From Candidatus Marivariicella framensis (GTDB lineage Bacteria > Bacteroidota > Bacteroidia > Flavobacteriales > Flavobacteriaceae): 64,000 nucleotides of DNA. The stretch is taken from contig CAJJCT010000002.1 in the NCBI GenBank assembly GCA_905182735.1, positions 9,267 through 73,266 on the forward strand, given 5' to 3'. The position numbers were made by a program, and so were the translations under genes. A model generated the notes under the pieces. The model did not search any database and had not been told where the DNA came from. It was given only the letters and a program-made list of their open reading frames with translations. This document shows positions 2,811 through 20,067 of this stretch, one piece after another. Position 1 is the stretch's first letter, and every line of letters starts with the position of its first letter.

Positions 2811-4691
2811 TCAATCATATTGTTGCCATTGAGTGTGAAAATATTGATCTAAAGGCTTGTCAACTCTTTGGTAGCTATGAGCGCCAAAGAAATCACGTTG
2901 TGCCTGGATGAGATTTGCTGGCAGTGTTTCTGTACATAGCGCAATCCAATAATTATAAGCACTTGAATAACAATCTAAAGCAATTTTTTGATCTACAGCA
3001 TGATGAATTAAAACGGCAGCATCAGACTCGGCATTACTGATTAAACCAATGAAGTTCGTGTTTTGAAGCAACTTTTTTTCTTTTGAAAAAACCTTTATAA
3101 GACGCTCCATTAAATTAGACCGGATGATACACCCTTGCGTCCAAACACGTGCAATTTCTGCAGGCTTATACTCCCATCCGTAGGTTTTAGCCGCGTGTTC
3201 AATTAGGTTAAATCCTTGTATATGATTGATTTTTCGGGCAAATCCATATGCTTTTTTAAGCACAGATAGATCAAGGGTGTTGGACTTAAAGATTCGGGGG
3301 TTGCTCTGAGACAACAAAGTTCGTTGTGCTTTCATCAATGAAAGGTAGCGGGAAAAAACAGCGGAAGACATCATCGTATTAACTTCTCCCAGCTCTAAGG
3401 CAGCAGAACTTGACCACATACCTGTTCCTTTGCTACTCGACTGATCTAGAATTAAATCAATTAAGAAGTAATTGCCTTCTTTTTTCTGAAGAATTTTAGC
3501 GGTAATTTCTAATAGATAACTCGCCTCCGAACCCGTGTTCCATTCGTTAAAAACAGAAGCTATTTCTGTGTGATTCATTTGACGAGACAATACCGCAAAG
3601 GTTTCTGCTAGGAGTTGCATTTCGGCATATTCAATACCGTTATGTACCATCTTTACAAAATGTCCAGCTCCTTCGGAACCCAAATAAGCATGACAGGGAT
3701 TCCCCAAGGCATCTTTAGCGGCGATAAGGTTTAAAATAGGCCTTAACAGGCCATAGGCTCTGGGACTTCCTCCAAACATAAGCGAAGCGCCATAACGAGC
3801 TCCAAGGGCTCCTCCAGAAACCCCACAACCAGCAAAAACAATCTTTCTTTTTTCTAGTACTTGGACTCTTCTTTGAGTATCTAAATAATGCGAATTACCA
3901 CCATCAACAATAACATCACCTTCGTTAAGTAACGGTAATAGTTCATCAATCAGTTTGTCAACAGCAGAACCGCTTTTGATCATTAACCAGATTTTACGTG
4001 GCCGTTCAAGGGCATCAATGAAATGGCTTAATTCGGTGAAACCCAATACGTTTTTAAATTGAGAATTGTTTGAAATAAAAACATCTATAACCCTTTCTTC
4101 TCCAGGAGCTAATCGGTTATAGACGGCCGTATAAAAATTATTTTCAGCGCAATTTAATGCAATTCCTTGCCCCATTACCCCCATTCCAACAACTCCAATA
4201 GTTGGAGGATTTGAAGGGTTTATCTTTTCTAAAAGAGACGCACTCAACTCTGGTAAAGGCTTGTCAACGTTAAGGAAAATTCCATAAGAGGGAAGTTCTA
4301 GGGTACTAAACTGTGAGCGAAGTAATTGGGGATCAAAAAAATGATTTTCACGATTTTTTAGACGTGCTTGAATCAATTCAAATGAACCATTCAGCACCAC
4401 CCAGGTAATCCCGCTATTTTGATCTGAGAGAATACTTCGATAATTTTCTTTTAGCGCTGAGCAAGCTAAAATAGCTTGGCCTTTTTTGGACCATTCTTTA
4501 ATTTTTTCAGCCAAAAGGAAGAGCCATGGTTTTCGATCGGAATCCTCTAAACCAAGTCCCAACTTCATTTTGTCTTTGTTTGATTTCGAATGAAAATCAT
4601 CTGCATCATAAAAAGGCCATGTTGTTTGTTGCGAAAGCTGTTTTCCAAGGCTTGTTTTTCCAGCTCCACTAACACCCATTATTACTATCAT
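2811..4691 (-). CDS. gnd: bifunctional gluconokinase / NADP-dependent 6-phosphogluconate dehydrogenase (decarboxylating) fusion
   Basis: Single 626-aa ORF. The N-terminal ~165 aa carry the P-loop GVSGAGKT and DADDFH typical of GntK-type gluconokinase. From about aa 175, IGVVGMGVMGQGIALN, GAGHFVKMVHNGIEYAEMQ and RDFFGAHSYQR are 6PGDH hallmarks. Confidence 0.8.
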   Translation of the reverse strand: MIVIMGVSGAGKTSLGKQLSQQTTWPFYDADDFHSKSNKDKMKLGLGLEDSDRKPWLFLLAEKIKEWSKKGQAILACSALKENYRSILSDQNSGITWVVLNGSFELIQARLKNRENHFFDPQLLRSQFSTLELPSYGIFLNVDKPLPELSASLLEKINPSNPPTIGVVGMGVMGQGIALNCAENNFYTAVYNRLAPGEERVIDVFISNNSQFKNVLGFTELSHFIDALERPRKIWLMIKSGSAVDKLIDELLPLLNEGDVIVDGGNSHYLDTQRRVQVLEKRKIVFAGCGVSGGALGARYGASLMFGGSPRAYGLLRPILNLIAAKDALGNPCHAYLGSEGAGHFVKMVHNGIEYAEMQLLAETFAVLSRQMNHTEIASVFNEWNTGSEASYLLEITAKILQKKEGNYFLIDLILDQSSSKGTGMWSSSAALELGEVNTMMSSAVFSRYLSLMKAQRTLLSQSNPRIFKSNTLDLSVLKKAYGFARKINHIQGFNLIEHAAKTYGWEYKPAEIARVWTQGCIIRSNLMERLIKVFSKEKKLLQNTNFIGLISNAESDAAVLIHHAVDQKIALDCYSSAYNYWIALCTETLPANLIQAQRDFFGAHSYQRVDKPLDQYFHTQWQQYD

Positions 4692-4825: not shown

Positions 4826-5689
4826 ATGAAGAAATTAATTAGAAAAATAATTATCATATTTATTTTTATTGCTTGTAAATTAAGCTTTTCACAACCTTAT
4901 ATACCAATAAATAAATGGCAAGAAAAAACCATACTTCTTATTGGAGCTCATCCCGATGATGATTATATGTCTCATGCAACATTAGCTCTCTTAAATGATC
5001 ATCAAAACAATATTTATATACTAACACTTACAACTGGAAATGTTGGAACAAAAGATTTAAGTATCAGTAAAAATGATTTATCAAAAATAAGAAGACAAGA
5101 ACAGATAAACGCGATGAAGGTTCTTGGTCTTTCGGAAAATAAATATATTAATTTAGGTTATGATGATGGTCGACTAGAGTTTGCAGATAGGGAGGAGATT
5201 ATTGGAAAAATAGTTCACCATATTAGAAAGATAAAACCTGATGTTTTAATGTCGTTTGATCCCGGCTATAATTATCAGGTTTGGCACAAAAGTGATCATA
5301 GAGCTGCCGCATATTTAACTGCTGATGCTGTTAGGGCAGCAGAATGGCACCTGATGTATGAAGGTGACATAATTCACAATAAATTGGAAGCATATGCTGT
5401 CCCAGAATTTCTTTTTTACGGAGGTAATATTAGTGACACAAACACCAGTGTAAATATTCAAAAATATGTTGAAAAAAAAATACTATCAGGATCAAAATAT
5501 TTGAGTCAATGGTCGAGTGGATGGAATAAGTATTTAGGGTCAGATATTAATAACTATCCGGAAGGAGAAAAAGATAGAGTAAATAAAAGACTGAGGGAAA
5601 GAATAAGATTTATAAATGATATACCAGTAGAGCAATTTAGGTATTATAAAGGTATTCCTGATGGAATGGGTCGAAGCCCAAAAGACTAG
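4826..5689 (+). CDS. PIG-L (LmbE-like) family deacetylase, secreted
   Basis: LLIGAHPDDDYMSHA motif (AHPDDE-type) plus a signal peptide ending SFSQ. The ATG at 4826 is preferred over the TTG at 4808 used by the ORF track. Confidence 0.6.
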   Translation: MKKLIRKIIIIFIFIACKLSFSQPYIPINKWQEKTILLIGAHPDDDYMSHATLALLNDHQNNIYILTLTTGNVGTKDLSISKNDLSKIRRQEQINAMKVLGLSENKYINLGYDDGRLEFADREEIIGKIVHHIRKIKPDVLMSFDPGYNYQVWHKSDHRAAAYLTADAVRAAEWHLMYEGDIIHNKLEAYAVPEFLFYGGNISDTNTSVNIQKYVEKKILSGSKYLSQWSSGWNKYLGSDINNYPEGEKDRVNKRLRERIRFINDIPVEQFRYYKGIPDGMGRSPKD

Positions 5690-5777: not shown

Positions 5778-8033
5778 TTAGTTAAGATTTAGCCAATAGT
5801 TTAACTTAAGATTAATACTCCAGGATTTTATTTCTTCTGGAATCATAACTTCATTACTATTGAAAACTAAAAACAAGTCTGATGCAGGTTTGTATCTCCA
5901 TTGAAATCTTGAATTAAAATTCCATAAATCAAACTGTTTATTGTATTGGTATAGGCTTGAAAAAAACAATTTATTGGTTAATGTTATATCTAATTTAGAT
6001 CCAATAAGCCAAAAATCAGATTTATTCCAAGGACTTTCAAGATTTATAGAATTGTAGTTTATAATTGAATTTATACTAAAGTATGGCTGAAATCGATACC
6101 CTAATTCAGCTGATAAACTTCTTCGTTTCCCTTCTTGATAATATCCTCCAATCAAGCCATTAATTTTATATGTAAAATTATTTTGAGGTTTAGATGTAAA
6201 TTCAAAGCCAAAAGATGTCCATTCATGTTCAGAGCCTTTAATCAGAGAACCAACATTAGATCTTAATGGATCAAAATCTTGTAATAAATTAATATAGTTT
6301 TTGATAAAAACAACATTTAGCTTACTCCTGTTAGCAAAATTAATCACATATGAAAATTGATCTAAAAGATCAGTTCTATTATATGATTGGTCAAAAAAAT
6401 ATGTTCTTGAAAAATTAGGACCATAGGAAACAATATTAGAATCATTTTTATAAAATAAATAACCTAAAGAAGAGTTGAATTTATAATATCCCTTTCGAGG
6501 AACATAGCCCACTTCTGCATTAAAATTCTCACCTACGTATTCTTGTTGAATTCTTGCTTTCCAATTGGTTGAATTATATTCTAAATGAGAAGCAAAAGAA
6601 TGATCATTTTTAATTTGGTTACTACTATAGGTGTTTAAAAAAAATGCTTTTCCATTCCATAAATTATTTGCTGACCCATAGTTGTATTCTACTCCAATAT
6701 TTCTATTATATTTTGTATAATTTGAATCAGAAATAATTTTATTTTTTTCATCAAAAAAAGATTCTTTATTTATTAAAATTAGACCGATACTAGACCTTTC
6801 AAAAACTCTTTTTTGAATTGTAAAAACTCCAAAGTTTTGTTTCGGCAAACCAATCCTGTCAATGTTTTGAGTTTGAATATCCATTAAACCTATTCTCCAT
6901 TTTTCATTAATATTTCCACTTAATCTAAGACCTGCATTTATGGGAACACCTAATCCAATTCTTCTAGAGAAAAAAGGTCTCAAAGTTTTGTAACCAAAAT
7001 TGGCGAATAAGTCAGCATTTTCTAAAAAAAACTGTCTTCTCTCAGGATAAAAAAGTTCAAACCTATCCAGGTTTGTTACTTGTTGATCTACCTCTGCTTG
7101 TGAAAAATTTGGGTTAATAGTAAAATCTAAATTTAAAGCACTTGAAACACTAACCTTTATATCTCCCCCTATCTTGTTACTTTTTGTTTTATAGTCGTTA
7201 GTTTTTGAAATATTTGAAAGTGAGTAGGGTATTATTGAGATATTTCGCCCCTGTTTTGGAGGAGAAGAATCCCAAACTAACACTCCAGTATGCGCTAGGG
7301 AAACTGATGGAAATTGTCTTGGAACTGGAGCCCAGCTTGACTTTTCACCTGCCTTAAGGTCTAGTCTTCCAAAATTTATTCCCCACTCTTTAACTCCTTC
7401 TTTATATCGAATTGATTTTAATGGTATTGAAATTTCACAGGTCCATTTATCTTTATCAAAAGATATCTCTGACACCCATTTAGAATCCCAATTTAAGTCT
7501 ACTTTACCACCATTATACATTGTTCCGTCCCATTGTGCTCCGTATGCATTTAAGCCAAATGAAAAACCCGTTGTTAAATTATTAAAAGGATCTATTGAAA
7601 TTAGTAGGTTGTCATTTTTTCCAAAAGAAAAATCTCTTTTTAAAGATTCTACCGTATAATCTCCTTGCACACTGTTATTAAAAAAAACAACTCCAAAATA
7701 AATATTATTTTCATCATAAAGTATTTTAACTTCAGACTCTTGACTTGCTTGTTTTCCGTCTGTTGGAAGGATCATGAAAAAATTATTTGCTACCTCAGCA
7801 TTATTCCATATTTTCTCTTCTAAAACACCATCAATATTGATTATTTGATCTGTTTTTGTTGGATGAATTCTATAGCTTTCATTTATTTTTTGAGAATGAA
7901 CTTTCAGTGTTATTAAAACAAATAGGCTGAAAATTCGAATTGTATAATTTAACCTTGGATTATACATTAAACTAAACGAATTATCGCTATTAGACAATAT
8001 CGTTTCGAGCTGTTTTTTCATATTTGTTTTCAC
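5778..8033 (-). CDS. large outer-membrane protein, CBM9-like N-terminal domain plus DUF5916-like beta-barrel
   Basis: 751-aa ORF with signal peptide (..KVHSQ). The N-terminal EEKIWNNAEVANNFF region resembles CBM family 9, and the C-terminal part has alternating aromatic beta-strand patterning. The family call is from memory only. Confidence 0.45.
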   Translation of the reverse strand: MKTNMKKQLETILSNSDNSFSLMYNPRLNYTIRIFSLFVLITLKVHSQKINESYRIHPTKTDQIINIDGVLEEKIWNNAEVANNFFMILPTDGKQASQESEVKILYDENNIYFGVVFFNNSVQGDYTVESLKRDFSFGKNDNLLISIDPFNNLTTGFSFGLNAYGAQWDGTMYNGGKVDLNWDSKWVSEISFDKDKWTCEISIPLKSIRYKEGVKEWGINFGRLDLKAGEKSSWAPVPRQFPSVSLAHTGVLVWDSSPPKQGRNISIIPYSLSNISKTNDYKTKSNKIGGDIKVSVSSALNLDFTINPNFSQAEVDQQVTNLDRFELFYPERRQFFLENADLFANFGYKTLRPFFSRRIGLGVPINAGLRLSGNINEKWRIGLMDIQTQNIDRIGLPKQNFGVFTIQKRVFERSSIGLILINKESFFDEKNKIISDSNYTKYNRNIGVEYNYGSANNLWNGKAFFLNTYSSNQIKNDHSFASHLEYNSTNWKARIQQEYVGENFNAEVGYVPRKGYYKFNSSLGYLFYKNDSNIVSYGPNFSRTYFFDQSYNRTDLLDQFSYVINFANRSKLNVVFIKNYINLLQDFDPLRSNVGSLIKGSEHEWTSFGFEFTSKPQNNFTYKINGLIGGYYQEGKRRSLSAELGYRFQPYFSINSIINYNSINLESPWNKSDFWLIGSKLDITLTNKLFFSSLYQYNKQFDLWNFNSRFQWRYKPASDLFLVFNSNEVMIPEEIKSWSINLKLNYWLNLN

Positions 8034-10806: not shown

Positions 10807-13215
10807 TTAATTAAAAACAAAATTATAAGTCAATGATATAATAGCGCTGTTTATTATTGATAAATCATAAGCCCCGAAAGGACTGCTTCCAAAAAGTAAT
10901 CCATTGTCTGAAGTTCCATCTCTTGGAGCATAATAGATGTTGAATGGGTTTTTTCTTCCATATAAATTATAGAGTGTGAAGATCCAATCTCCTTTTAAGC
11001 GTGTATTTCTAACTTTACTATATGATATTTTCCACGAAAAATCTAATCGATGATAAGTAGGAAAAACGGCATTATTTCTCTCTAAATATATTGGAACCTT
11101 CAAATCCCCTAATTCAAAAACACCATTTGCAATAGTGTATGGTCTTCCAGACTGTGCCGTGAAGTTGAAACTATACTCATTATAAAGATCACTTTCATAA
11201 GAAAGTGTGGCATTAAAAGTATGAGGTCTATCAAATTCTGAAGGATACCACTTGTTACTATTAATTTTATTTTTTGTTTGTTGTTCATCTGTTTTTAACA
11301 AACTTCTAGCCCATGTATAATTTATAAATCCACTGAGTTTTCCAGATGGTTTTTTTAGAGTTATTTCAAGTCCATAATTACGTCCCTTTCCTTGAATTAA
11401 TTCTCTTTCTATAAACTCTGCAAGAAAAAAATCTGCACCTGGTTTGTATGTGAGCGTATTATTTGTACTTCTATAATAACTTTCTGCAGAAAACTCAAGG
11501 CCTAATGAATTGAAATTTTGAAAAAAACCAAAGCCAAAAGTATCACTTAATTGAGGTTTTATGTAAAAATCTGAAGTTTTCCATCTTGAGGTTGGTAAGG
11601 GTGTTGATGTGTTATATATGTTTTGAATATATTGATTTATTCTTGCATAACTTGCCTTTAGAGAACTGTTTTCTCCAATTTTAATACTAGCTCCTAGTCT
11701 AGGTTCAAGATTTTTGTATGTGATTACAGACTTATTCTTATCAAAAGAAGTAATACTTGTTTGATAACCACTATCATTATATTGAGCTAAATCATAAGGG
11801 CCTAAAAAATTAAAAATTGTATGCCTTAAACCTGCAGAAATAGATAAATTTGGCTGAGGATTCCAATTTAAATTAAAATAAGTTGAAAAATCTATACTAA
11901 CCTCTTCGTTTAAGGTAATTGGTGTAATAGAATTTCCTTTACCAGGAAATAATGAGCCTGGTTCAATGATGTAATTTTTTGTTTGAAGCCCTATAGAGTA
12001 ATCTAGCTTTTCATTTCTAATGTCCACAAACTCAGTCTGGGCACTTATATATTTTACATTAGACTTAAAGGTAATTACATTATCCGAATCATTTTCAGGA
12101 AATAGATTCATAGGTGAGTAAATACTATGAATAATTGATGACTTCAAGCTAGTATTGTTTTTAAAATTATATATCCAACTTAGTGTGTGATTTGAAGTTC
12201 CAAAATCGTATTGATTTGATTTCGCATTAATATTTTCTATGGTGGAAATTAAATCCAACTGATAAAAGTCATTAGATTTGAAATAAGTATAAGATAACTG
12301 ATTGTCTTCATTTAAAAGATAAAGTAGTTTTACTGTTCCGTCTGAAAAATTTGCTTTTGTATTCTCTAATCTTTTAACAAAGATTGGGAAAAGAATATCT
12401 GTAAAGCCAGCTCTAGCTCCTGCTAATAGAAATAATTTGTCCTTTATTAATGGGGTGGTTAAATTTATTCTGCTTGACAATAAGCCTATGCCACCACTAA
12501 TTTTTAGTTTATTCACATAAGGGTTTTTAACTTTAATATCCATTACAGAAGAAATTCTTCCTCCATATTTTGAAGGAATATTTGCTTGATACATACTTAC
12601 ATTTGAGATTACATCTGGAGTAAATACAGAGAGTAAACCAAAAAGATGAGTTGGGTTAAAAACAGGTGCAGAATCATATAACATAAGGTTTTGATCTAGA
12701 GAACCGCCTCTTACAGAAATTCCATTACTTACATCTCCTGCATTATTTACACCTGCCATCAATGTAATACTTTTAAGCACATCAAATTCTCCAAATGCTG
12801 ATGGGATTTTCACCAGTTCTTTAGCTGTGATATTAAAAACTCCCATTTGCGGTGTTTCAACATTTTCATTCATTTTTTTTGCTAGGACTACAACTTCAGA
12901 TAATTGTTCTTCAAAAACATTCATTTTAACTGAAATTAATGTGTCTTTATTTAAATCAATTATTAGTTGCTTATTCTTGTATCCTGTATACTCTAGTGAA
13001 AGTGTATACTCTTTTTCTGGAAGAGAAGTTGAGAAAACTCCTTCTGAACTTGTAATACCGCTCCCGCTCGAAGAATTGATTAAAACTGTTAAACTACTTA
13101 GAGGCTTTCCCGTTTCAAAATCTGTTACGTAAAGTGTAAGGTCATATTCTTGAGCCTTTAAAGGCAAGGTTAATATTAGTATACACACAAAGAAATAATT
13201 AAAAATTTCTTTCAT
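10807..13215 (-). CDS. TonB-dependent receptor with N-terminal carboxypeptidase-regulatory-like domain
   Basis: 802-aa ORF with signal peptide (..PLKAQ), an N-terminal CarboxypepD_reg-like beta-sandwich, a plug region (GISVRGGSLDQNLMLYD) and a C-terminal aromatic residue (..NFVFN). Confidence 0.8.
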   Translation of the reverse strand: MKEIFNYFFVCILILTLPLKAQEYDLTLYVTDFETGKPLSSLTVLINSSSGSGITSSEGVFSTSLPEKEYTLSLEYTGYKNKQLIIDLNKDTLISVKMNVFEEQLSEVVVLAKKMNENVETPQMGVFNITAKELVKIPSAFGEFDVLKSITLMAGVNNAGDVSNGISVRGGSLDQNLMLYDSAPVFNPTHLFGLLSVFTPDVISNVSMYQANIPSKYGGRISSVMDIKVKNPYVNKLKISGGIGLLSSRINLTTPLIKDKLFLLAGARAGFTDILFPIFVKRLENTKANFSDGTVKLLYLLNEDNQLSYTYFKSNDFYQLDLISTIENINAKSNQYDFGTSNHTLSWIYNFKNNTSLKSSIIHSIYSPMNLFPENDSDNVITFKSNVKYISAQTEFVDIRNEKLDYSIGLQTKNYIIEPGSLFPGKGNSITPITLNEEVSIDFSTYFNLNWNPQPNLSISAGLRHTIFNFLGPYDLAQYNDSGYQTSITSFDKNKSVITYKNLEPRLGASIKIGENSSLKASYARINQYIQNIYNTSTPLPTSRWKTSDFYIKPQLSDTFGFGFFQNFNSLGLEFSAESYYRSTNNTLTYKPGADFFLAEFIERELIQGKGRNYGLEITLKKPSGKLSGFINYTWARSLLKTDEQQTKNKINSNKWYPSEFDRPHTFNATLSYESDLYNEYSFNFTAQSGRPYTIANGVFELGDLKVPIYLERNNAVFPTYHRLDFSWKISYSKVRNTRLKGDWIFTLYNLYGRKNPFNIYYAPRDGTSDNGLLFGSSPFGAYDLSIINSAIISLTYNFVFN

Positions 13216-13221
13216 TAATTA

Positions 13222-14382
13222 TTAATTAATAAACCCTCTATCCATATTTGAATTCCAGCCTTCTGGTTTTATTGATGTTCTGTATAGACCTTCTTCACAG
13301 GGTGCATAAATTGGATAACAAGTCGCACATAAAGGCTGAGGAAGATTATTTCCAAAAGTTTCATAACGATTTTGTTCGTATTCTGAAACTGCATTACCTG
13401 CTAAATTATTTCTACGGATGTATATTGATTTACTTGATCCCGACGCCACTGTAAATCTTCCCATAATAATTTCATCTTCATCATTTGGATTATATAAATT
13501 ACCAATCAATACCGAAGGAAGTGGAGCGTTTAATCCGCTATTGTTTCCAATAGCATCTTTTAAAGATTTTAAATATCTATGAGCTTCATAAGACACGTTA
13601 AACTTTTGAACTTTTACTAAAATATTCCTTTTTGAATATAATGGTATCTCAACAGCCACTAAATTATTTACAGGTTTTCCATTTGTAAATTCATCACTAA
13701 AAATTGAAATACTTTCATTGTTAAATCTAATATTCCAACAATCTGAAAAACATGCATAAGTAAAATATTGAGGACCATAAGTACTGATGTAACCACTTGT
13801 ACTTATACATTCTCCATCTCTTAAAACACCTTTATAACAATAATCACAATATGGAGCATCTTCATAAGTTTTATAATCATAGTAATAAAAATTTTCTTTT
13901 TCAATAGGATCATCAAATGAAATCAAAATCTTATGACCTGGGATATACCTATTGGTCCTATTATCATATGATAGTTGTAAATCATACTCAGATTTAATGT
14001 CTTTAATTAAAACTTCATCAGGCATAGTTTCTGGGTAAGATCTATACTCAGTCCCATCAGGAAAAATAATTTTTAATTCCCATGATTCTCCTTGTAAAAC
14101 TTTAAAACCTAAAGGTGCATAATACCTGTCAAGACCCTCTATTAGCTTCACAACCCTATTATCACTAATTAACTCAACTAAGCAGTTAGAGAAAAAGCCT
14201 GTTTTGTAATAACCAGATTCATTTGAACCTATTCTGACTTTAACATATGACGCTCCTTCAATTGAAGACGCCATACCTTCAATAAATAATAAATCTTCTA
14301 AAAAATCAAATTCAGGAGCTATCGGTTCAATACAAGTAGTAAAAAGAAAAGAAAAGATTACAATTAATATACGCTTAATCAA
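13222..14382 (-). CDS. DUF4249-like lipoprotein (partner of the TonB-dependent receptor)
   Basis: Lipobox IVIFSFLFTTC. LFIEGMAS...V.L.SDN.V..L.E...YYAP.GFKVLQGESWELKIIFPDGTEYRS resembles DUF4249. The start is placed at the in-frame TTG at 14382 (LIKRILIV...). The 62 upstream codons in the ORF track precede the signal peptide and are probably not translated. Confidence 0.5.
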   Translation of the reverse strand: MIKRILIVIFSFLFTTCIEPIAPEFDFLEDLLFIEGMASSIEGASYVKVRIGSNESGYYKTGFFSNCLVELISDNRVVKLIEGLDRYYAPLGFKVLQGESWELKIIFPDGTEYRSYPETMPDEVLIKDIKSEYDLQLSYDNRTNRYIPGHKILISFDDPIEKENFYYYDYKTYEDAPYCDYCYKGVLRDGECISTSGYISTYGPQYFTYACFSDCWNIRFNNESISIFSDEFTNGKPVNNLVAVEIPLYSKRNILVKVQKFNVSYEAHRYLKSLKDAIGNNSGLNAPLPSVLIGNLYNPNDEDEIIMGRFTVASGSSKSIYIRRNNLAGNAVSEYEQNRYETFGNNLPQPLCATCYPIYAPCEEGLYRTSIKPEGWNSNMDRGFIN

Positions 14383-14486
14383 ATTAGATGTTTTTAAATA
14401 TAATCTATTAAATGTATGAGTTTTAAAGACATTAACAAGCAAATGTCTGGTCTTATGCAGGAGACTATATTTCACGGGTTTGGATC

Positions 14487-14539
14487 CTGGTGGAACCACC
14501 AGTAAAATCATGCTCTCACTTAAAGTGAGGGCTTTTTTT
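14487..14539 (+). promoter_or_regulatory. two stem-loops ending in an intrinsic-terminator-like hairpin plus T7, 40 nt upstream of the Rieske gene start
   Basis: CTGGTG-gaac-CACCAG (14487-14502) is followed by GCTCTCACT-taa-AGTGAGGGC (14512-14532) and then TTTTTTT (14533-14539). No + strand gene lies upstream. Confidence 0.35.
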
Positions 14540-14579
14540 ATTATAGTTAAATTTATTATTTTTGACACAAACTAAGATT

Positions 14580-15677: not shown

Positions 15678-16220
15678 ATGAATAGATTTATTACAGTTTT
15701 TTTATTGACTTCATTATATGTTAATTGTCAACAAGCACCTCAAGAAAAGTGGATACTTAGTAAAGATCAATCTTACATTTCTTATGAAGGAAAACACATT
15801 TTACACGAGTGGTCTGGAACCAGTAAAAATGTTAAAGGCGTTTTGATTATGGAAAAAAATCAACCTATAAAAACAGCAATAATTTCTGCAATTAAAGATT
15901 TTGATAGTGGAAACTCATCAAGGGATTCCCACGCAATGGAAATTTTAGAAACTTTATTATTTCCCGATGTAAGTTTTTTTGGAGAATCGTTTACTTTAAA
16001 TAATGACAAATTTATGATACTTGGAAAAATAAAATTCCACAGTATAGATAAAGAAATTAACGTGTCAGGAGATTGGAATCAAACAAATGAAAAGATAATG
16101 CTAAAAGGAAACTTTAAAATAAAACCTTCAGACTTTGAAATAAAACTTCCGGACTTTATGCTTGTTAAAATGGAAAACAATCTAGATATAGAGTATGAAC
16201 TTATTTTTATTCAAGAATAA
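15678..16220 (+). CDS. YceI family (polyisoprenoid-binding) protein
   Basis: 180-aa ORF with signal peptide. Size and motifs (ISYEGKH..H...G, DFDSGNSSRDSHA) fit the YceI-like lipocalin fold family. Confidence 0.65.
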   Translation: MNRFITVFLLTSLYVNCQQAPQEKWILSKDQSYISYEGKHILHEWSGTSKNVKGVLIMEKNQPIKTAIISAIKDFDSGNSSRDSHAMEILETLLFPDVSFFGESFTLNNDKFMILGKIKFHSIDKEINVSGDWNQTNEKIMLKGNFKIKPSDFEIKLPDFMLVKMENNLDIEYELIFIQE

Positions 16221-16265
16221 ATTTATGTAAAAAAAAACCCTCACAATTGCGAGGGTTTTTTTATG
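16116..16265 (+). repeat. direct repeat copy A: last ~38 codons of yceI plus its terminator
   Basis: Hand alignment to 17943-18092. The core 16156-16263 versus 17983-18090 is about 87% identical. Confidence 0.85.
16231..16262. terminator. bidirectional intrinsic terminator between yceI and proteorhodopsin
   Basis: A-run, then CCCTCAC-aatt-GCGAGGG, then a T-run. It lies between convergent stops at 16220 and 16280. Confidence 0.7.
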
Positions 16266-16279
16266 ATTTATAAAATTTA

Positions 16280-16996
16280 TTATTTAGAATCTACAGCTAA
16301 TTGATAAACAACTAAACCAAATCCAATTTTATTGATAGCATCACCAACGTTATAAATAACGTCCATGTCTAGTCCACCAAAAATTCCACTGTACCATCCT
16401 TCAGTACCAGCCATATAGCCAATTGGGTAAATTGCCCAACCAACTAACACAAACCAGCATAAAGTTTTGTGTGCAGCTTGTACAGCACCTCCTGCAGAAG
16501 CAGCAAGTTTAGCAGCACCACCCAACCAGATTTCATATACAATAGCAAAGTATGCGATTCCTGAAATAAGACCCCACAACCAAGCTTGGCCATCATCATT
16601 GTGCAATCCTTCACCAATGTAACCAGTTATGAGCATAATTGTAGAAAGAAGTATCAATTTCCACATTAAAGATTTTTGAGCTCCAGCAGCTTTAAGTATT
16701 AAATAAAATTCAACACACATTAAAGGTACCGTAAGTATCCAGTCTACATATCTAAAAAAAGTTGGAGAAGAACCCGTATCCATGTAATACTCTCTCATGT
16801 ACCAGTAGTGAACTGCAGCGATGAAAGTAATTAACCCAGAAACTAGAATAGAAGTTCTCCATTTTTCACCAAAAGAGTTCATTGACAGGAAGAAAAATAC
16901 AGATGCAGCCATCATAGCCATGCAACCAATAAAGAAAGTAAAAGTTATTAAATTCTCTATTGGAGCACCCTCAATCATTAAATTTAAAATGTTCAT
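16280..16996 (-). CDS. proteorhodopsin, DTE-motif light-driven proton pump, Met at the spectral tuning position
   Basis: 238 aa and seven hydrophobic helices. AAVHYWYMR (His75 equivalent), RYVDWILTVPLMCVEFYLIL (D85/T89/E96 locally = D97/T101/E108 in GPR numbering; M93 = position 105), and Schiff-base lysine in GDAINKIGFG (K223). Confidence 0.9.
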   Translation of the reverse strand: MNILNLMIEGAPIENLITFTFFIGCMAMMAASVFFFLSMNSFGEKWRTSILVSGLITFIAAVHYWYMREYYMDTGSSPTFFRYVDWILTVPLMCVEFYLILKAAGAQKSLMWKLILLSTIMLITGYIGEGLHNDDGQAWLWGLISGIAYFAIVYEIWLGGAAKLAASAGGAVQAAHKTLCWFVLVGWAIYPIGYMAGTEGWYSGIFGGLDMDVIYNVGDAINKIGFGLVVYQLAVDSK

Positions 16997-17070
16997 ATAA
17001 TTATTTTTTAATAGTTTTGAACCCTAAAATTAATTGAATATTTAACAAATCCTACTATAAATTGCTATTT

Positions 17071-17943
17071 ATGCTTTCTAAAATTAAAATTATATCATCA
17101 ATATTTATCATATGGATATCACTTTATTCCTTTTCAAATATTGATATAATTGTTGCAAGTATATTTATACTATCAATAGGATTAGGCCACGGCGCTTGCG
17201 ATATTACCTTAATAACAACCAAATTAAATACTTCATCCTTTAAAATCAAGGCAGTTATTATCTTTTTATATATTCTTACTGCTTTTACTGCTTTTTTGGT
17301 AGTGTATAACCTACCGTTAATAGGGTTTATAACCTTTTTACTGATCAGTAGTTACCATTTCGGAGAACAACATTTTCACAATAAATTGTCAAATTCTAAA
17401 ATGAAGTTTTGGCATTTTTCATTATATGGGATGGTAATATTCTTGCTTATGATAGAAACCAATAAAGAATCAGTAATCGACATACTGAATCCTTTGATAG
17501 AGAGTGAAATAAACCAATTTCCAATTCAGACTATTTTATTTGTTTTTATGGGATTGACAGCTTTATTATGGATTGTAGATTATAAGAATTTAAGGTTTTC
17601 TATTCCAAAAGAATTATTTTATTTACTTGTAATATATGTCTTGTTTTACAATACCAACTTAATCGTTTCTTTTGCCTCCTACTTTGTAATATGGCATTCT
17701 ATTCCGTCAATACATGATCAGATTCATTATCTATATAAAGATGTTTCTAAAAAAACTATTTTATTGTATTTGAAAAAAAGTGGATATTATTGGGCGGTCT
17801 CAATTGCAGGTTTAATTTTTTTGGTTTCGTATGGAGAAATAATGGGAGAGAATTTTTATAGAATACTTTATTCTTTTGTAGTTTCAGTAACAATTCCTCA
17901 TATTTTTCTGATCAATAATATTCTATCAGAATCTAACCAATAA
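17071..17943 (+). CDS. blh: Brp/Blh family beta-carotene 15,15'-dioxygenase (retinal synthesis)
   Basis: About 290-aa polytopic membrane protein divergent from the opsin gene. Conserved His clusters GHGACD, HFGEQH, WHSIPS and IPHIF are typical of Blh. The ATG at 17071 is preferred over the TTG at 17062. Confidence 0.8.
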   Translation: MLSKIKIISSIFIIWISLYSFSNIDIIVASIFILSIGLGHGACDITLITTKLNTSSFKIKAVIIFLYILTAFTAFLVVYNLPLIGFITFLLISSYHFGEQHFHNKLSNSKMKFWHFSLYGMVIFLLMIETNKESVIDILNPLIESEINQFPIQTILFVFMGLTALLWIVDYKNLRFSIPKELFYLLVIYVLFYNTNLIVSFASYFVIWHSIPSIHDQIHYLYKDVSKKTILLYLKKSGYYWAVSIAGLIFLVSYGEIMGENFYRILYSFVVSVTIPHIFLINNILSESNQ

Positions 17944-18092
17944 AATATTTCACATCATATTTTGAAATAAAAATCCCTAGCCTTATGCTTGTTAAAATGG
18001 AAAATAAGCTAGATATAGATTACGAACTTATTTTTACTCAAGAATTAAAGTTTATGTAAAAAAAACCTTCACGTTTGTGAAGGTTTTTTATA
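17943..18092 (+). repeat. direct repeat copy B: relic of the yceI 3' end plus a second functional-looking terminator
   Basis: It translates in frame as ..KYFTSYFEIKIPSLMLVKMENKLDIDYELIFTQELKFM*, compared with the intact ..KIKPSDFEIKLPDFMLVKMENNLDIEYELIFIQE*. It begins at the blh stop codon. Confidence 0.85.
18058..18089. terminator. bidirectional intrinsic terminator (blh versus the 18168-18947 gene)
   Basis: A8, then the perfect hairpin CCTTCAC-gttt-GTGAAGG, then T6. Confidence 0.7.
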
Positions 18093-18167
18093 GTTTTAAA
18101 CTAATTAATGAAAAATTATTCTCTCATAACTTTTACTTTAATCACAAGCTTTTAATAGTTTTTGTAA

Positions 18168-18947
18168 TCAACTTGTTTTGATTGGAAGAGATGGATTTTT
18201 TATCCACCTAGACAAAGAACTCAAAAGTCCATAAAGGAAATTATAAATAGCTAGAGAAACATATAATTTTGCTAATACAATTGCAACTTGAACATATTCC
18301 CATCCAACAGCTACAAGTCCTCCTATGTTATAACCAGAAGCGTCTGAACCAGTAACATCCCAAGCACTAAAGTCCTTCAATACTCCTCCTACAAAATCCA
18401 AGCGAATCATTGATAAAAATTCAGCAGCAGCATTAATAGGTAGGCTAACAGAATATGCTACTCCAGCAAAAAATTCAGGAGCAATAGAAATATTTGGGTC
18501 TGTACCCATTAACAACCATCCCAATGTAGCGCAAAATGCTCCAAATAAAGCAACTAAAGCTCCAGCATGGCCAAAAAGTTTGATATTGGCTACAATAAGA
18601 TCTCTAAAAAAGAAATCTACGATTCCACTTTTGGAACCAGCTAAACTATCTCCGGCTGATCTTACAGTTTGAGCAATTGGAAACGCTGCGTATATTAAAA
18701 TAAGCATACAAACAACAGCGGTGCCTTTTCCAATACCATCTGCAGAGTTAATAGCGTCTATTCCACCAGTAATTGCAGTGAGTAACATCCCAAGAAGAAG
18801 AACTAAAGCGCCAATCTTATAAAAAGTTCCTGCCCAGCCTCCAAAGGAGCCTTCTGAACCTTCCACCATAGCATTAAAATTATTTTTTGGAAGTTTTTGA
18901 TTCACCATGTGAGGTAAATCCAAAATTTGATTTAGTATTTTTTCCAT
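18168..18947 (-). CDS. hypothetical polytopic membrane protein, Gly/Ala-rich
   Basis: 259-aa ORF with about 5 predicted TM helices after a 45-aa soluble N-terminus. No recognisable family. Confidence 0.45.
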   Translation of the reverse strand: MEKILNQILDLPHMVNQKLPKNNFNAMVEGSEGSFGGWAGTFYKIGALVLLLGMLLTAITGGIDAINSADGIGKGTAVVCMLILIYAAFPIAQTVRSAGDSLAGSKSGIVDFFFRDLIVANIKLFGHAGALVALFGAFCATLGWLLMGTDPNISIAPEFFAGVAYSVSLPINAAAEFLSMIRLDFVGGVLKDFSAWDVTGSDASGYNIGGLVAVGWEYVQVAIVLAKLYVSLAIYNFLYGLLSSLSRWIKNPSLPIKTS

Positions 18948-19059
18948 AATATATTTATTGGTTACGTTAATAAACTTACAAAATTTTTTTTATATGGAAA
19001 GGTTAACACTTTTAATACCAGTTTATTAGAAAAAAAATCTAAAATAAATTCATCAGAGT

Positions 19060-20067
19060 CTAATTAATCAAACCGTTTATATCATATTTTGATAAAAATT
19101 CCCAAATCAGTGATGGAGCGTCTATGTCATATGAGCCATAATCACTAGGAGCATTAACCCTCGGCCATTCATGACCCATTTCGTCTAATAAATAAAATTC
19201 AACAGAAACGTTATTTTCTCCATTTTCATATACTTTATGAATACCACCATATTCATCTCCATTAAGATCAGTTATAATTTGACTTGCGGGGGAGCTATTA
19301 CAGCGGTTGTAATTAACCCAGAAGTTAATTACATCATCCATCGGCTCACAGAGGGCTTCATATCCTAGATAGGGCACAACATAATCATCAAGTCCATGAA
19401 TTTGCATCACGGGAGTAGGGTGATCAGGAGTACACTCTGAAAAAGTTTTAGGCGACATGGATCCAGTAACTGATGCAATTGCTGCAATTTTTGAGCCTAA
19501 ATTACAAGCTAAATGATAGCTCATAAACCCACCATTTGACATCCCAGTAGAATACACCCGATTAGTATTAACATTATAATTATCTGAAGACCACTCTATC
19601 AAATCATCAATAAATCCAATATCATCAGATGTACTTCTTTCATCTAATTCAGTTGTCCAACCAACATTCCAATGAGTATTTCCTTCAGAGGAGAATCCAG
19701 TTTTCTCACTTGGAAGAGTTTTCCATAGCGATCCTTGAGGATAAATTACAATGAACCCATTTTCATCTGCTAAAGATCGAAATCCAGTATACTGAATATT
19801 CCATTTAGCGTAGCTTGTAAAACCATGTAGGCTAAATAAAAGAGGAACAGCTAGATTTTGAGAGAAGTAAGATTCGGGAACATATACAATGAACTCTCTA
19901 GCCAGCCCATTCTTGATCATTGAACAATTATAAGTGTTATTTCCTCCTAATGAACAGGTTGTCCCGTCTAAAAGCATCTCATTAGACTCCGAGTTGTCTT
20001 TATTACAAGAAAACAGAATTAATAAATTAAAAATTAAAAAGAATAGGTTCTTCAAATTATAAAACAA
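19060..20067 (-). CDS. secreted alpha/beta-hydrolase esterase (PHB depolymerase / LpqC-type family) lipoprotein
   Basis: Lipobox LILFSC, nucleophile elbow GMSNGGFMS, the HG oxyanion motif (FSLHGF) and a late HGLDD motif. The start is TTG. Confidence 0.6.
   Translation of the reverse strand: MFYNLKNLFFLIFNLLILFSCNKDNSESNEMLLDGTTCSLGGNNTYNCSMIKNGLAREFIVYVPESYFSQNLAVPLLFSLHGFTSYAKWNIQYTGFRSLADENGFIVIYPQGSLWKTLPSEKTGFSSEGNTHWNVGWTTELDERSTSDDIGFIDDLIEWSSDNYNVNTNRVYSTGMSNGGFMSYHLACNLGSKIAAIASVTGSMSPKTFSECTPDHPTPVMQIHGLDDYVVPYLGYEALCEPMDDVINFWVNYNRCNSSPASQIITDLNGDEYGGIHKVYENGENNVSVEFYLLDEMGHEWPRVNAPSDYGSYDIDAPSLIWEFLSKYDINGLIN

Follow-up and report, generated by a model that had tools for sequence, protein, structure and literature searches.

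Direct repeats of flanking-gene ends around proteorhodopsin-blh and an adjoining mobile membrane-protein gene in Candidatus Marivariicella framensis

Candidatus Marivariicella framensis, an uncultured marine member of the Flavobacteriaceae that is represented by contigs alone, carries a gene pair for proteorhodopsin (PR) and the beta-carotene 15,15'-dioxygenase Blh. We analysed a stretch of 64,000 nucleotides (nt) from one of its contigs, here called the window, to which all positions refer unless a contig label precedes them. The slot that holds PR-blh was compared with its counterparts in relatives, which are metagenome contigs or metagenome-assembled genomes throughout (labels L001 and so on); syntenic contigs were chosen by graded yceI homologues (93-40% identity), and a scan of species-representative genomes added L019 and L021-L023. 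In the window, PR-blh lies between a yceI-like gene and p259, a gene for a hypothetical membrane protein, with an esterase gene beyond (Table 1); the neighbours of PR-blh are Rieske, YceI, esterase, GHMP kinase and NTP transferase genes, and the region is AT-rich (GC 31%). Two pairs of direct repeats made of the ends of flanking genes, DR1 and DR2, bracket PR-blh and p259, respectively.

Table 1. Features of the proteorhodopsin slot and its repeats, with positions in the window (aa, amino acids; ORF, open reading frame; E, expectation value).
Feature	Positions	Strand	Evidence
yceI-like gene, intact, 180 aa	15678-16220	+	ORF; Pfam YceI PF04264, E 1.3e-11; homologues 93-40% identity
Patch divergent from L001-3	16065-16325		73-88% per 60-nt bin; flanks 93-100% identical
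DR1 copy A: last ~31 yceI codons, stop, terminator A	16128-16261	+	blastn to copy B; aligned with relatives
Predicted terminator A, bidirectional hairpin common to convergent yceI and PR	16231-16262	both	-15.5 (+) / -18.5 (-) kcal/mol
Proteorhodopsin (PR), 238 aa	16280-16996	-	Pfam Bac_rhodopsin, E 1e-41
blh, beta-carotene 15,15'-dioxygenase	17062-17943	+	Pfam BCD, E 1e-32
DR2 left: last blh codons and est'	17925-17971	+	Repeat search; 36/47 nt to right copy
est', non-coding relic of esterase 3' end, directly after blh	17933-17966	-	25-27/34 nt match in register
DR1 copy B: yceI 3' stub (pseudogene fragment, 1-nt insertion before stop) and terminator B	17955-18089	+	blastn; junction conserved in L005/L006
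Illegitimate junction, esterase 3' homology to yceI 3' homology	17960-17975		Three-way sequence comparison
p259 module recurring elsewhere: 66 nt upstream, gene, spacer, hairpin B, 42-nt yceI stub	18018-19013	-	92.4% over 1000 nt to L069/L070
Predicted terminator B, bidirectional hairpin now between blh and p259	18060-18089	both	-16.1 and -15.6 kcal/mol
Spacer: frame spacer (ATGAAAAATTATT) and ~47 nt of p259's own 3' flank	18090-18167	-	Shared with L005, L070, L073; partly L068, L074
p259, conserved hypothetical membrane protein, 259 aa, all-helical	18168-18947	-	ORF; without Pfam or NCBIfam match
DR2 right: functional esterase 3' end and 8-11 nt upstream reading like last blh codons	19052-19098	+	Repeat search, junction alignment
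Esterase / alpha-beta hydrolase	19060-20067	-	Pfam Abhydrolase_2 and others; 3' end overlaps blh 3' end in most relatives

Repeat finding, MAFFT and blastn each recovered DR1, whose two copies of the yceI 3' end and its terminator (134 nt) are 83.8% identical over 136 columns (E 5.7e-36 for blastn of 17941-18095 against the whole window). The local alignment score was 164, against 22.5 ± 3.2 and a maximum of 41 for shuffled sequences. An initial annotation of the window had proposed this direct repeat, and its place, its core and the two translations quoted from it all proved correct: of the 110 columns in the alignment of 16156-16263 with 17983-18090, 96 match (87.3%), 10 are mismatched and 4 contain gaps, where ~87% identity, ~10 substitutions and 3-4 indels had been claimed. 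The extent of the repeat had to be revised. The yceI end is duplicated as described, but the copy does not start at the blh stop codon or comprise 38 codons; yceI homology begins at ~17955-17966, the reading frame is kept over ~31 codons, and 17933-17966 belongs to the esterase relic described below. The hairpin terminators that the same annotation had predicted fold strongly on both strands (z -4.6 to -7.3), each with a GC-containing stem flanked by an A-run and a T-run between convergent genes. They differ by a compensatory stem pair change, C-G in A versus T-A in B, and the T-A pair is also found in the hairpins of PR-less relatives. As a separate observation, the loop of hairpin B is inverted between close relatives (CAC-TTTT-GTG versus CAC-AAAA-GTG; L005 ~2390-2420 versus L006 ~3655-3685).

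Copy B is present at the same junction in L005 and L006, where it is 92-93% identical to that of the window and has its stop codon at the yceI position; the longer reading in the window, which ends in ELKFM, results from the 1-nt insertion. Divergence among these three sequences is neutral-like, and copies A and B are ~16% diverged (Jukes-Cantor distance ~0.18). In principle, the repeat could reflect no historical event at all, merely converging terminators, AT-rich gene ends or an assembly artefact, as the base composition and the metagenomic origin of all the data might suggest. Given an E value of about 6e-36, a frame preserved over some 31 codons, and the same junction with neutral-like divergence in independent assemblies, we consider this hardly credible. 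DR1 is a recombination scar rather than a chance match or a member of a terminator family.

As annotated initially, PR and blh are the only genes between the DR1 copies, and no recombination machinery was detected nearby: there are no tRNA genes in the 64-kb window and no integrase or transposase Pfam domains in the syntenic neighbourhoods of the window and its relatives. A site-specific integrative element was rejected, there being no integrase gene, no tRNA target and no identical core with unrelated arms. A transposon or insertion sequence was rejected as well, since transposase domains are missing, the inverted repeats are just the two hairpins, and the duplications of 47 and 134 nt are gene ends.

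Directly after blh lies est', a relic of the esterase 3' end that begins at the CTAA of the last blh codons and keeps the register seen in relatives in which blh and the esterase gene overlap. Its 25-27 matches out of 34 compare with a window background of 10.4 ± 2.7, and only 2 of 127,934 positions score at least 24. The relic carries the esterase allele ...CTT ATT GAT TAG, as in L007 and L019, while the functional esterase gene ends in TTG ATT AAT TAG. Because est' sits between blh and copy B, the abutment of blh and the esterase gene must predate the joining of copy B. Esterase homology gives way to yceI homology at TTTGA(A/T)A(T/A)AAA, a microhomology common to the esterase 3' end, yceI and the junction itself; a join of this kind between unrelated sequences is what marks homology-facilitated illegitimate recombination. 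The relic and the last blh codons make up the left copy of DR2 (47 nt; 36/47 identical in the window, 38/47 in L005; spacing 1127 nt), which brackets copy B, hairpin B, p259 and the p259 promoter. At the right copy, 10 of the 11 nt beside the esterase stop codon resemble the end of blh. Altogether, ~1.13 kb of extra material separates blh from the esterase gene: est', the yceI stub, hairpin B, the spacer, p259 and its promoter.

Three occupancies of the slot occur in natural populations, and two of them are 96-98% identical to each other (arrowheads give gene direction). The PR-only layout, type III, reads yceI> <PR blh> <esterase, with a blh/esterase 3' overlap of 8-11 nt (measured in L001, L007 and L010) and without p259 or a second yceI end. 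It was found in L001-3, L007-8, L010-12, L019 (yceI 82% identical at the protein level) and L021 (57%), that is, in conspecifics and in lineages with yceI 75, 68, 82 and 57% identical; L022 (yceI 45%) and L023 (42%) have yceI> <PR blh> without the esterase gene. The layout with both genes and copy B at the same junction, type II, is limited to the window, L005 and L006 among the sampled contigs. The p259-only layout, type I, reads yceI> <p259 <esterase over a single hairpin, without PR or blh, and was found in L013-18, L071, L072 and L076. It corresponds to the empty site that had been predicted from the window, with yceI convergent with the homologue of 18168-18947 over one terminator.

The repeats predict how the layouts may be related. 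Recombination across DR1 would excise PR-blh cleanly and leave yceI (with a hybrid end), hairpin B, spacer and p259; recombination across DR2 would remove p259 and leave blh overlapping the esterase gene. Both predicted products, yceI> <p259 and the blh-esterase overlap, exist in nature, and PR-less and p259-less forms may have arisen through the repeats. The sequence predicted for a DR2 deletion, blh...ATCAGA joined to GTCTAATTAATCAAACCG...esterase, is that of L001-3. Since these contigs also share the window's right flank at 96-98% identity, their type III state is probably secondary. Neither PR nor blh relics were found at the PR-less yceI loci, as expected for excision across DR1. PR-less L073 has the order yceI end, hairpin B, spacer, p259 and a window-like p259 3' flank, and differs only in lacking an 18-nt stretch beside the hairpin. 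In the same contig (L073:4700-6800), yceI has decayed (an internal deletion, with fragmentary tblastn matches) and there is no esterase gene, while p259 and its long 3' flank are kept.

The match between L001-3 and the window (96-98% nt identity in p209, PR, blh, esterase, GHMP kinase and NTP transferase) is interrupted by a divergent patch that runs from the end of yceI across terminator A into the 3' end of PR. The yceI part of the patch (16065-16184) is 95-97% identical in the copy-B-bearing contigs L004/L006, and synonymous divergence (dS) between the window and L001-3 is 0.30 in yceI and 0.04-0.10 in the neighbouring genes. Since the yceI end of L001 is an outlier among all relatives, a short imported patch in L001-3 is likely. 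A few kb away, between a GH16 and a Rieske-like gene, the window carries a SusC-like CarbopepD_reg_2 gene (802 aa) and a DUF4249 gene (10807-14568). This pair is present in L004 and absent from the otherwise 96-98% identical L001-3, and is thus a further presence/absence polymorphism close to the PR slot.

How old is PR-blh at this site? The yceI-PR-blh layout is conserved in relatives whose yceI ranges from 93% to 42% identity, and PR-blh is present at the yceI site in all sampled relatives that are nearer than the PR-less lineage. In neighbour-joining protein trees (200 bootstraps, rooted on the PR-bearing genomes L022/L023), the window species, L007 and L019 group together with 98.5% support for PR+blh and with 96% for the left flank (p209+yceI), and the PR-less lineage is nested inside PR-bearing lineages. 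For the right flank (esterase, GHMP kinase, NTP transferase) the same group has 0% support, which suggests that ancestry shifts across the junction. Synonymous divergence between the window and other yceI-PR-blh lineages is 0.6-1.9. With its ~16% divergence the DR1 duplication is much younger than the yceI-PR-blh adjacency, since a neutral stub as old as that could not have stayed so well preserved. Taken together with the agreement between the PR+blh trees and the p209/yceI flank, these results indicate that PR-blh is most likely old at the yceI slot and was not acquired in the event that produced DR1.

This bears directly on the initial annotation, which had read the repeat as a homology-driven scar of the lateral acquisition of PR-blh, possibly by Campbell-type integration. 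A recombination scar without a recombinase is indeed present, as are the flanking repeats and the unoccupied site, but the layout is conserved, the history of PR-blh matches that of its flank, and the PR-less lineage lies within PR-bearing ones. The annotation itself had named an ancestral, vertically congruent PR-blh-yceI arrangement as the finding that would speak against it, and such an arrangement is what the trees display. In a fuller version of the acquisition scenario, a PR-less recipient (yceI> <p259 <esterase) would have gained a circular or linear PR-blh fragment through a crossover in the yceI 3' end, with est' as the far end of the donor fragment. The expected product is identical to the observed one, est' and the yceI stub forming the junction of the circle; the predicted empty site exists, the est' allele differs from the resident esterase allele, and left and right flanks differ in tree position. 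We nevertheless regard it as improbable, because p209 and the 5' portion of yceI, recipient DNA in this scenario, have the same position in the trees as PR+blh, and because of the PR-blh found here in all sampled relatives closer than the PR-less lineage. Given the formal symmetry of the fused product, it is still conceivable that a PR-less member of the clade acquired PR-blh anew.

The properties of p259 also speak against PR-blh as the newcomer: low dS, presence at multiple loci and carried stubs of neighbouring genes all belong to p259 and not to PR-blh. The family has 156 homologues in marine Flavobacteriia with invariant motifs such as YAAFPIAQ.(I/V)RSAGDSL, and no Pfam or NCBIfam match; the best hit of a PDB profile search was noise (E 0.19), and a Foldseek search of the PDB with an AlphaFold model (mean confidence, pLDDT, 72) gave a best E of 0.12 and a template modelling (TM) score below 0.3, with no significant match to rhodopsins. 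In relatives with 85-93% protein identity p259 occupies three loci: yceI/esterase, ffh/argS (L062-65, L068, L074, L075, L085) and sulfatase/DUF1456 (L069/70). At the last of these, L070:4934-5932 (= L069:1054-2052), the entire p259 module lies between the two genes, copy-B-type yceI stub included. A target duplication around it was considered and dismissed, the only candidate being an unconvincing 18-nt match of 83% near the ends; the idea that the window's spacer (18090-18170) is a decayed PR 3' end was likewise dropped, its local score of 17 lying below the shuffle mean of 19.3.

Between the window and the PR-less type I lineage, dS is 0.42-0.54 for p259 versus 0.86-1.2 for the flanks. At ffh/argS it is 0.05 for p259 versus 0.8-1.1 for the flanking genes (L062 versus L075), 0.38 versus 1.4-1.6 (L062 versus L074) and 0.38-0.43 versus 1.3-1.8 across the comparisons of L062 with L074 and L068, which points to repeated horizontal replacement of p259 among lineages. 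At short range, p259 dS is ordinary (0.057 versus 0.03-0.06 for the window and L005; 0.35 versus 0.25-0.8 for L013 and L016). Three loci, carried neighbour stubs and dS values far below those of the flanks establish that p259 is mobile. It is also found without PR nearby, in Patiriisocius-like L088, BACL29-like L066/67 and L077-84, so that its linkage to PR, though recurrent, is not universal. In a BACL29-like 'Cryomorphaceae' contig (L067:2-3423), yceI lies ~2 kb from a p259 homologue (64% aa identity), the two genes being divergent with HxlR and two small ORFs between them.

The pairing of PR and p259 recurs. At three unrelated slots, the PR unit and p259 stand in tandem copies of one frame that is marked by 3' stubs of the flanking genes; in the window these are the yceI and esterase stubs. 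The second slot is the ffh/argS locus of L075 (4393-6285), which reads blh2< p259> PR2> <argS. Here PR2 is bracketed by repeats (5242-5349 versus 6177-6285, 80-88% identical) consisting of 3' flank, hairpin and 57 nt from the end of argS, and a p259 module with hairpin and 57-nt argS stub lies upstream of PR2. The p259 promoter and first codons (MEKIL) are duplicated before PR2 (4393-4486 versus 5393-5486), and a PR 3' relic is present at 5368-5398. Over 1316 nt, the stub-bearing segment shares 94% identity with PR-less L062, whereas the stub is 80% identical to the argS 3' end of L075 itself, and the real argS end of L075 is 75% identical to that of L062. The best sampled match of the stub is thus the argS end of L062 and not that of L075, and in L075 the direction can be read directly: the stub next to p259 is the imported one. 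This parallel again argues against an import of PR-blh in the window.

The third slot lies in a Polaribacter-like contig (L092:439-6839) and reads serine dehydratase> <PR blh> YaaD stub <88aa <YaaD_1 serine-dehydratase stub p259> <YaaD_2. The stubs are 108 nt of the YaaD 3' end after blh and 115 nt of the serine-dehydratase 3' end before p259, and YaaD is duplicated (YaaD_1 versus YaaD_2, 82% nt identity). At each of the three slots, PR-less relatives exist in which p259 stands by itself (type I, L062 and L086, respectively). Loss of PR2/blh2 at ffh/argS has mostly left debris, with p259 intact in L068, L074/L085 and L062/63. In L062/63, a fragmented blh2 pseudogene remains (L062:5415-5909) and PR2 is cleanly gone; L068 holds blh2 fragments and a PR 3' relic (3153-3228; 84% over 76 nt to window PR 16287-16362, E 7e-19); and L074/85 keep only a PR 3' relic (L074:5858-5917).

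To account for the window we favour the following history, which we consider probable: a yceI> <PR blh> <esterase locus was already resident and vertically inherited when a segment from the p259 side became attached to it, and copy B arrived with p259 and not with PR-blh. The locus would then be the product of fusing two haplotypes that occupy the same slot as alternatives. A PR-type part (yceI, terminator, PR, blh, esterase) would extend through ~34 nt of the esterase 3' end, and a p259-type part (yceI, terminator, p259, esterase) would take over from the last ~31 yceI codons onward, the two meeting in a single illegitimate join at the microhomology (~17960-17975). The likeliest route would be uptake of DNA from a PR-less relative, with a homology anchor on the esterase side and illegitimate closure on the other, that is, homology-facilitated illegitimate recombination with p259 as the mobile cargo. 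In one step, such a fusion would have created both repeat pairs, DR1 around PR-blh and DR2 around the p259 module. Because the fused product is symmetric, its direction has to come from other evidence; the apparent ancestry shift across the junction, the est' allele, the mobility of p259 and the L075 case lead us to conclude, with moderate confidence, that a chromosome with PR took up the p259 side.

Several observations weigh against this history. The symmetry just mentioned means that sequence alone does not tell which haplotype was the recipient. Although support for the grouping falls from 96-98.5% on the left of the junction to 0% on the right and p259 dS is low, the right-flank trees are otherwise poorly resolved, and low p259 dS against many lineages could owe something to gene-specific constraint; the case of 0.05 versus ~1 argues against constraint as the sole cause. 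A simple model with one anchor does not predict the 8-11 nt that read like the end of blh at the right DR2 copy. A search of the esterase gene in 60-nt bins for a stretch similar to the PR-less lineage, as would be expected at the homologous crossover, found none. All relatives being metagenome-derived, a chimeric assembly at the repeats is conceivable; yet the junction stands in three independent assemblies (window, L005, L006).

The origin of copy B presents a further difficulty. The question raised initially, which copy is nearer to the yceI of other lineages, has a partial answer: copy B as a whole is 76-78% identical to copies from PR-bearing relatives and 67-72% to those of the PR-less lineage, and at ~150 nt it is too short for firm placement by identity. 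We therefore turned to diagnostic sites. At 7 of the 8 sites that separate the PR-bearing clade from the sampled PR-less lineage, the coding part of copy B has the state of the PR-bearing clade, and copy B shares just the hairpin stem pair and one codon with the PR-less lineage. Among the sampled yceI genes none is close to copy B, the best being the window's own copy A (84%). With no close donor yceI and a resident-like coding part, either the donor is unsampled or copy B is a local duplicate.

A local origin would run as follows: the unit from the yceI 3' end and terminator through PR-blh to est' was duplicated in tandem at TTTGA.A.AAA, the second PR-blh was then replaced by an incoming p259, and PR-less relatives were derived later by DR1 deletion or by import of the p259 side. 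This would explain the resident-type coding part of copy B and its closeness to copy A, and it agrees with the stem pair common to copy B and the hairpins of PR-less relatives, with the blh-like nucleotides by the esterase stop codon and with the retention of the window's p259 3' flank in PR-less L073. It needs two events, however, the second of which must replace PR-blh almost exactly at the gene boundaries; it leaves unexplained both the discordance between left and right phylogenies and the different esterase alleles in est' and the gene, and no intermediate with two PR-blh copies was found among the sampled contigs. We consider a local origin unlikely, and retain the joining of a p259-side segment onto the resident locus as our preferred explanation.

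The kind of event proposed here, illegitimate or homologous recombination that creates repeat-bracketed genes, is already known. Homology-facilitated illegitimate recombination has been described for naturally transformable Acinetobacter and Streptococcus pneumoniae. The window resembles those cases in that one end appears anchored by homology and the other joined at microhomology, with no recombinase gene and with stubs of donor neighbours; it differs in that the event is read from natural sequence alone, and in the 47-nt target duplication that flanks the insert. Gene 3' ends are also duplicated where prophages and islands integrate, as with phage 21/e14 in icd or islands in tRNA or tmRNA genes. 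There, too, a diverged second gene 3' end brackets the inserted DNA, one copy of the gene being intact and the other a stub. Unlike at those sites, with their site-specific integrase and identical att core, there is no integrase or tRNA here, the 84% identity is spread over ~135 nt, and the junction lies at microhomology inside the relic of another gene. The locus further resembles cases of repeat-mediated deletion or unequal crossing-over, in that direct repeats of 47-134 nt bracket dispensable genes and the predicted products occur in relatives; in contrast to these, the tandem units carry different cargo (PR-blh and p259) and the pairing is found at three unrelated slots.

Among marine Flavobacteriia the occurrence of PR is patchy, and arguments have been made for its gain as well as for its loss (PMC5932025). 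In Polaribacter, where PR-blh has a conserved slot beside L-serine dehydratase, the lack of PR in relatives has been interpreted as loss (Kumagai et al. 2018, PMC5932025, Fig. 6), a situation similar to the present one in its fixed PR-blh slot and in a PR-less lineage nested among PR-bearing ones. The words 'flanking' and 'neighbor' are absent from the main text of that study, where we saw no mention of repeats or of a 259-aa gene; in our analysis, p259 is present in the Polaribacter serine-dehydratase slot together with flanking-gene stubs. A literature search found no paper that combines 'proteorhodopsin' and 'YceI', and a paper on Gulf of Maine Flavobacteriaceae (PMC4164334) contains nothing on the yceI-PR-blh locus. 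We found no earlier description of a PR/p259 slot with three states or of its recurrence at three loci.

The physical routes by which PR is gained or lost are rarely visible, and the junction relics described here allow the order of events to be read: PR-blh is most likely old at the site, the mobile neighbour would have come later, and the resulting repeats would make the loss of either cargo a single step. Two further loci have the same design, which suggests a general route by which phototrophy is lost and singles out p259, an uncharacterised and widely conserved membrane protein. It is possible, if speculative, that PR(-blh) and p259 make up a two-cassette exchange system that recurs among marine Flavobacteriia, in which p259 sweeps without a recombinase into PR slots and duplicates the frame, and the repeats later allow excision of the photosystem. 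The arrival of p259 would then be the first step of PR loss, and p259 may be tied functionally to life with or without PR.

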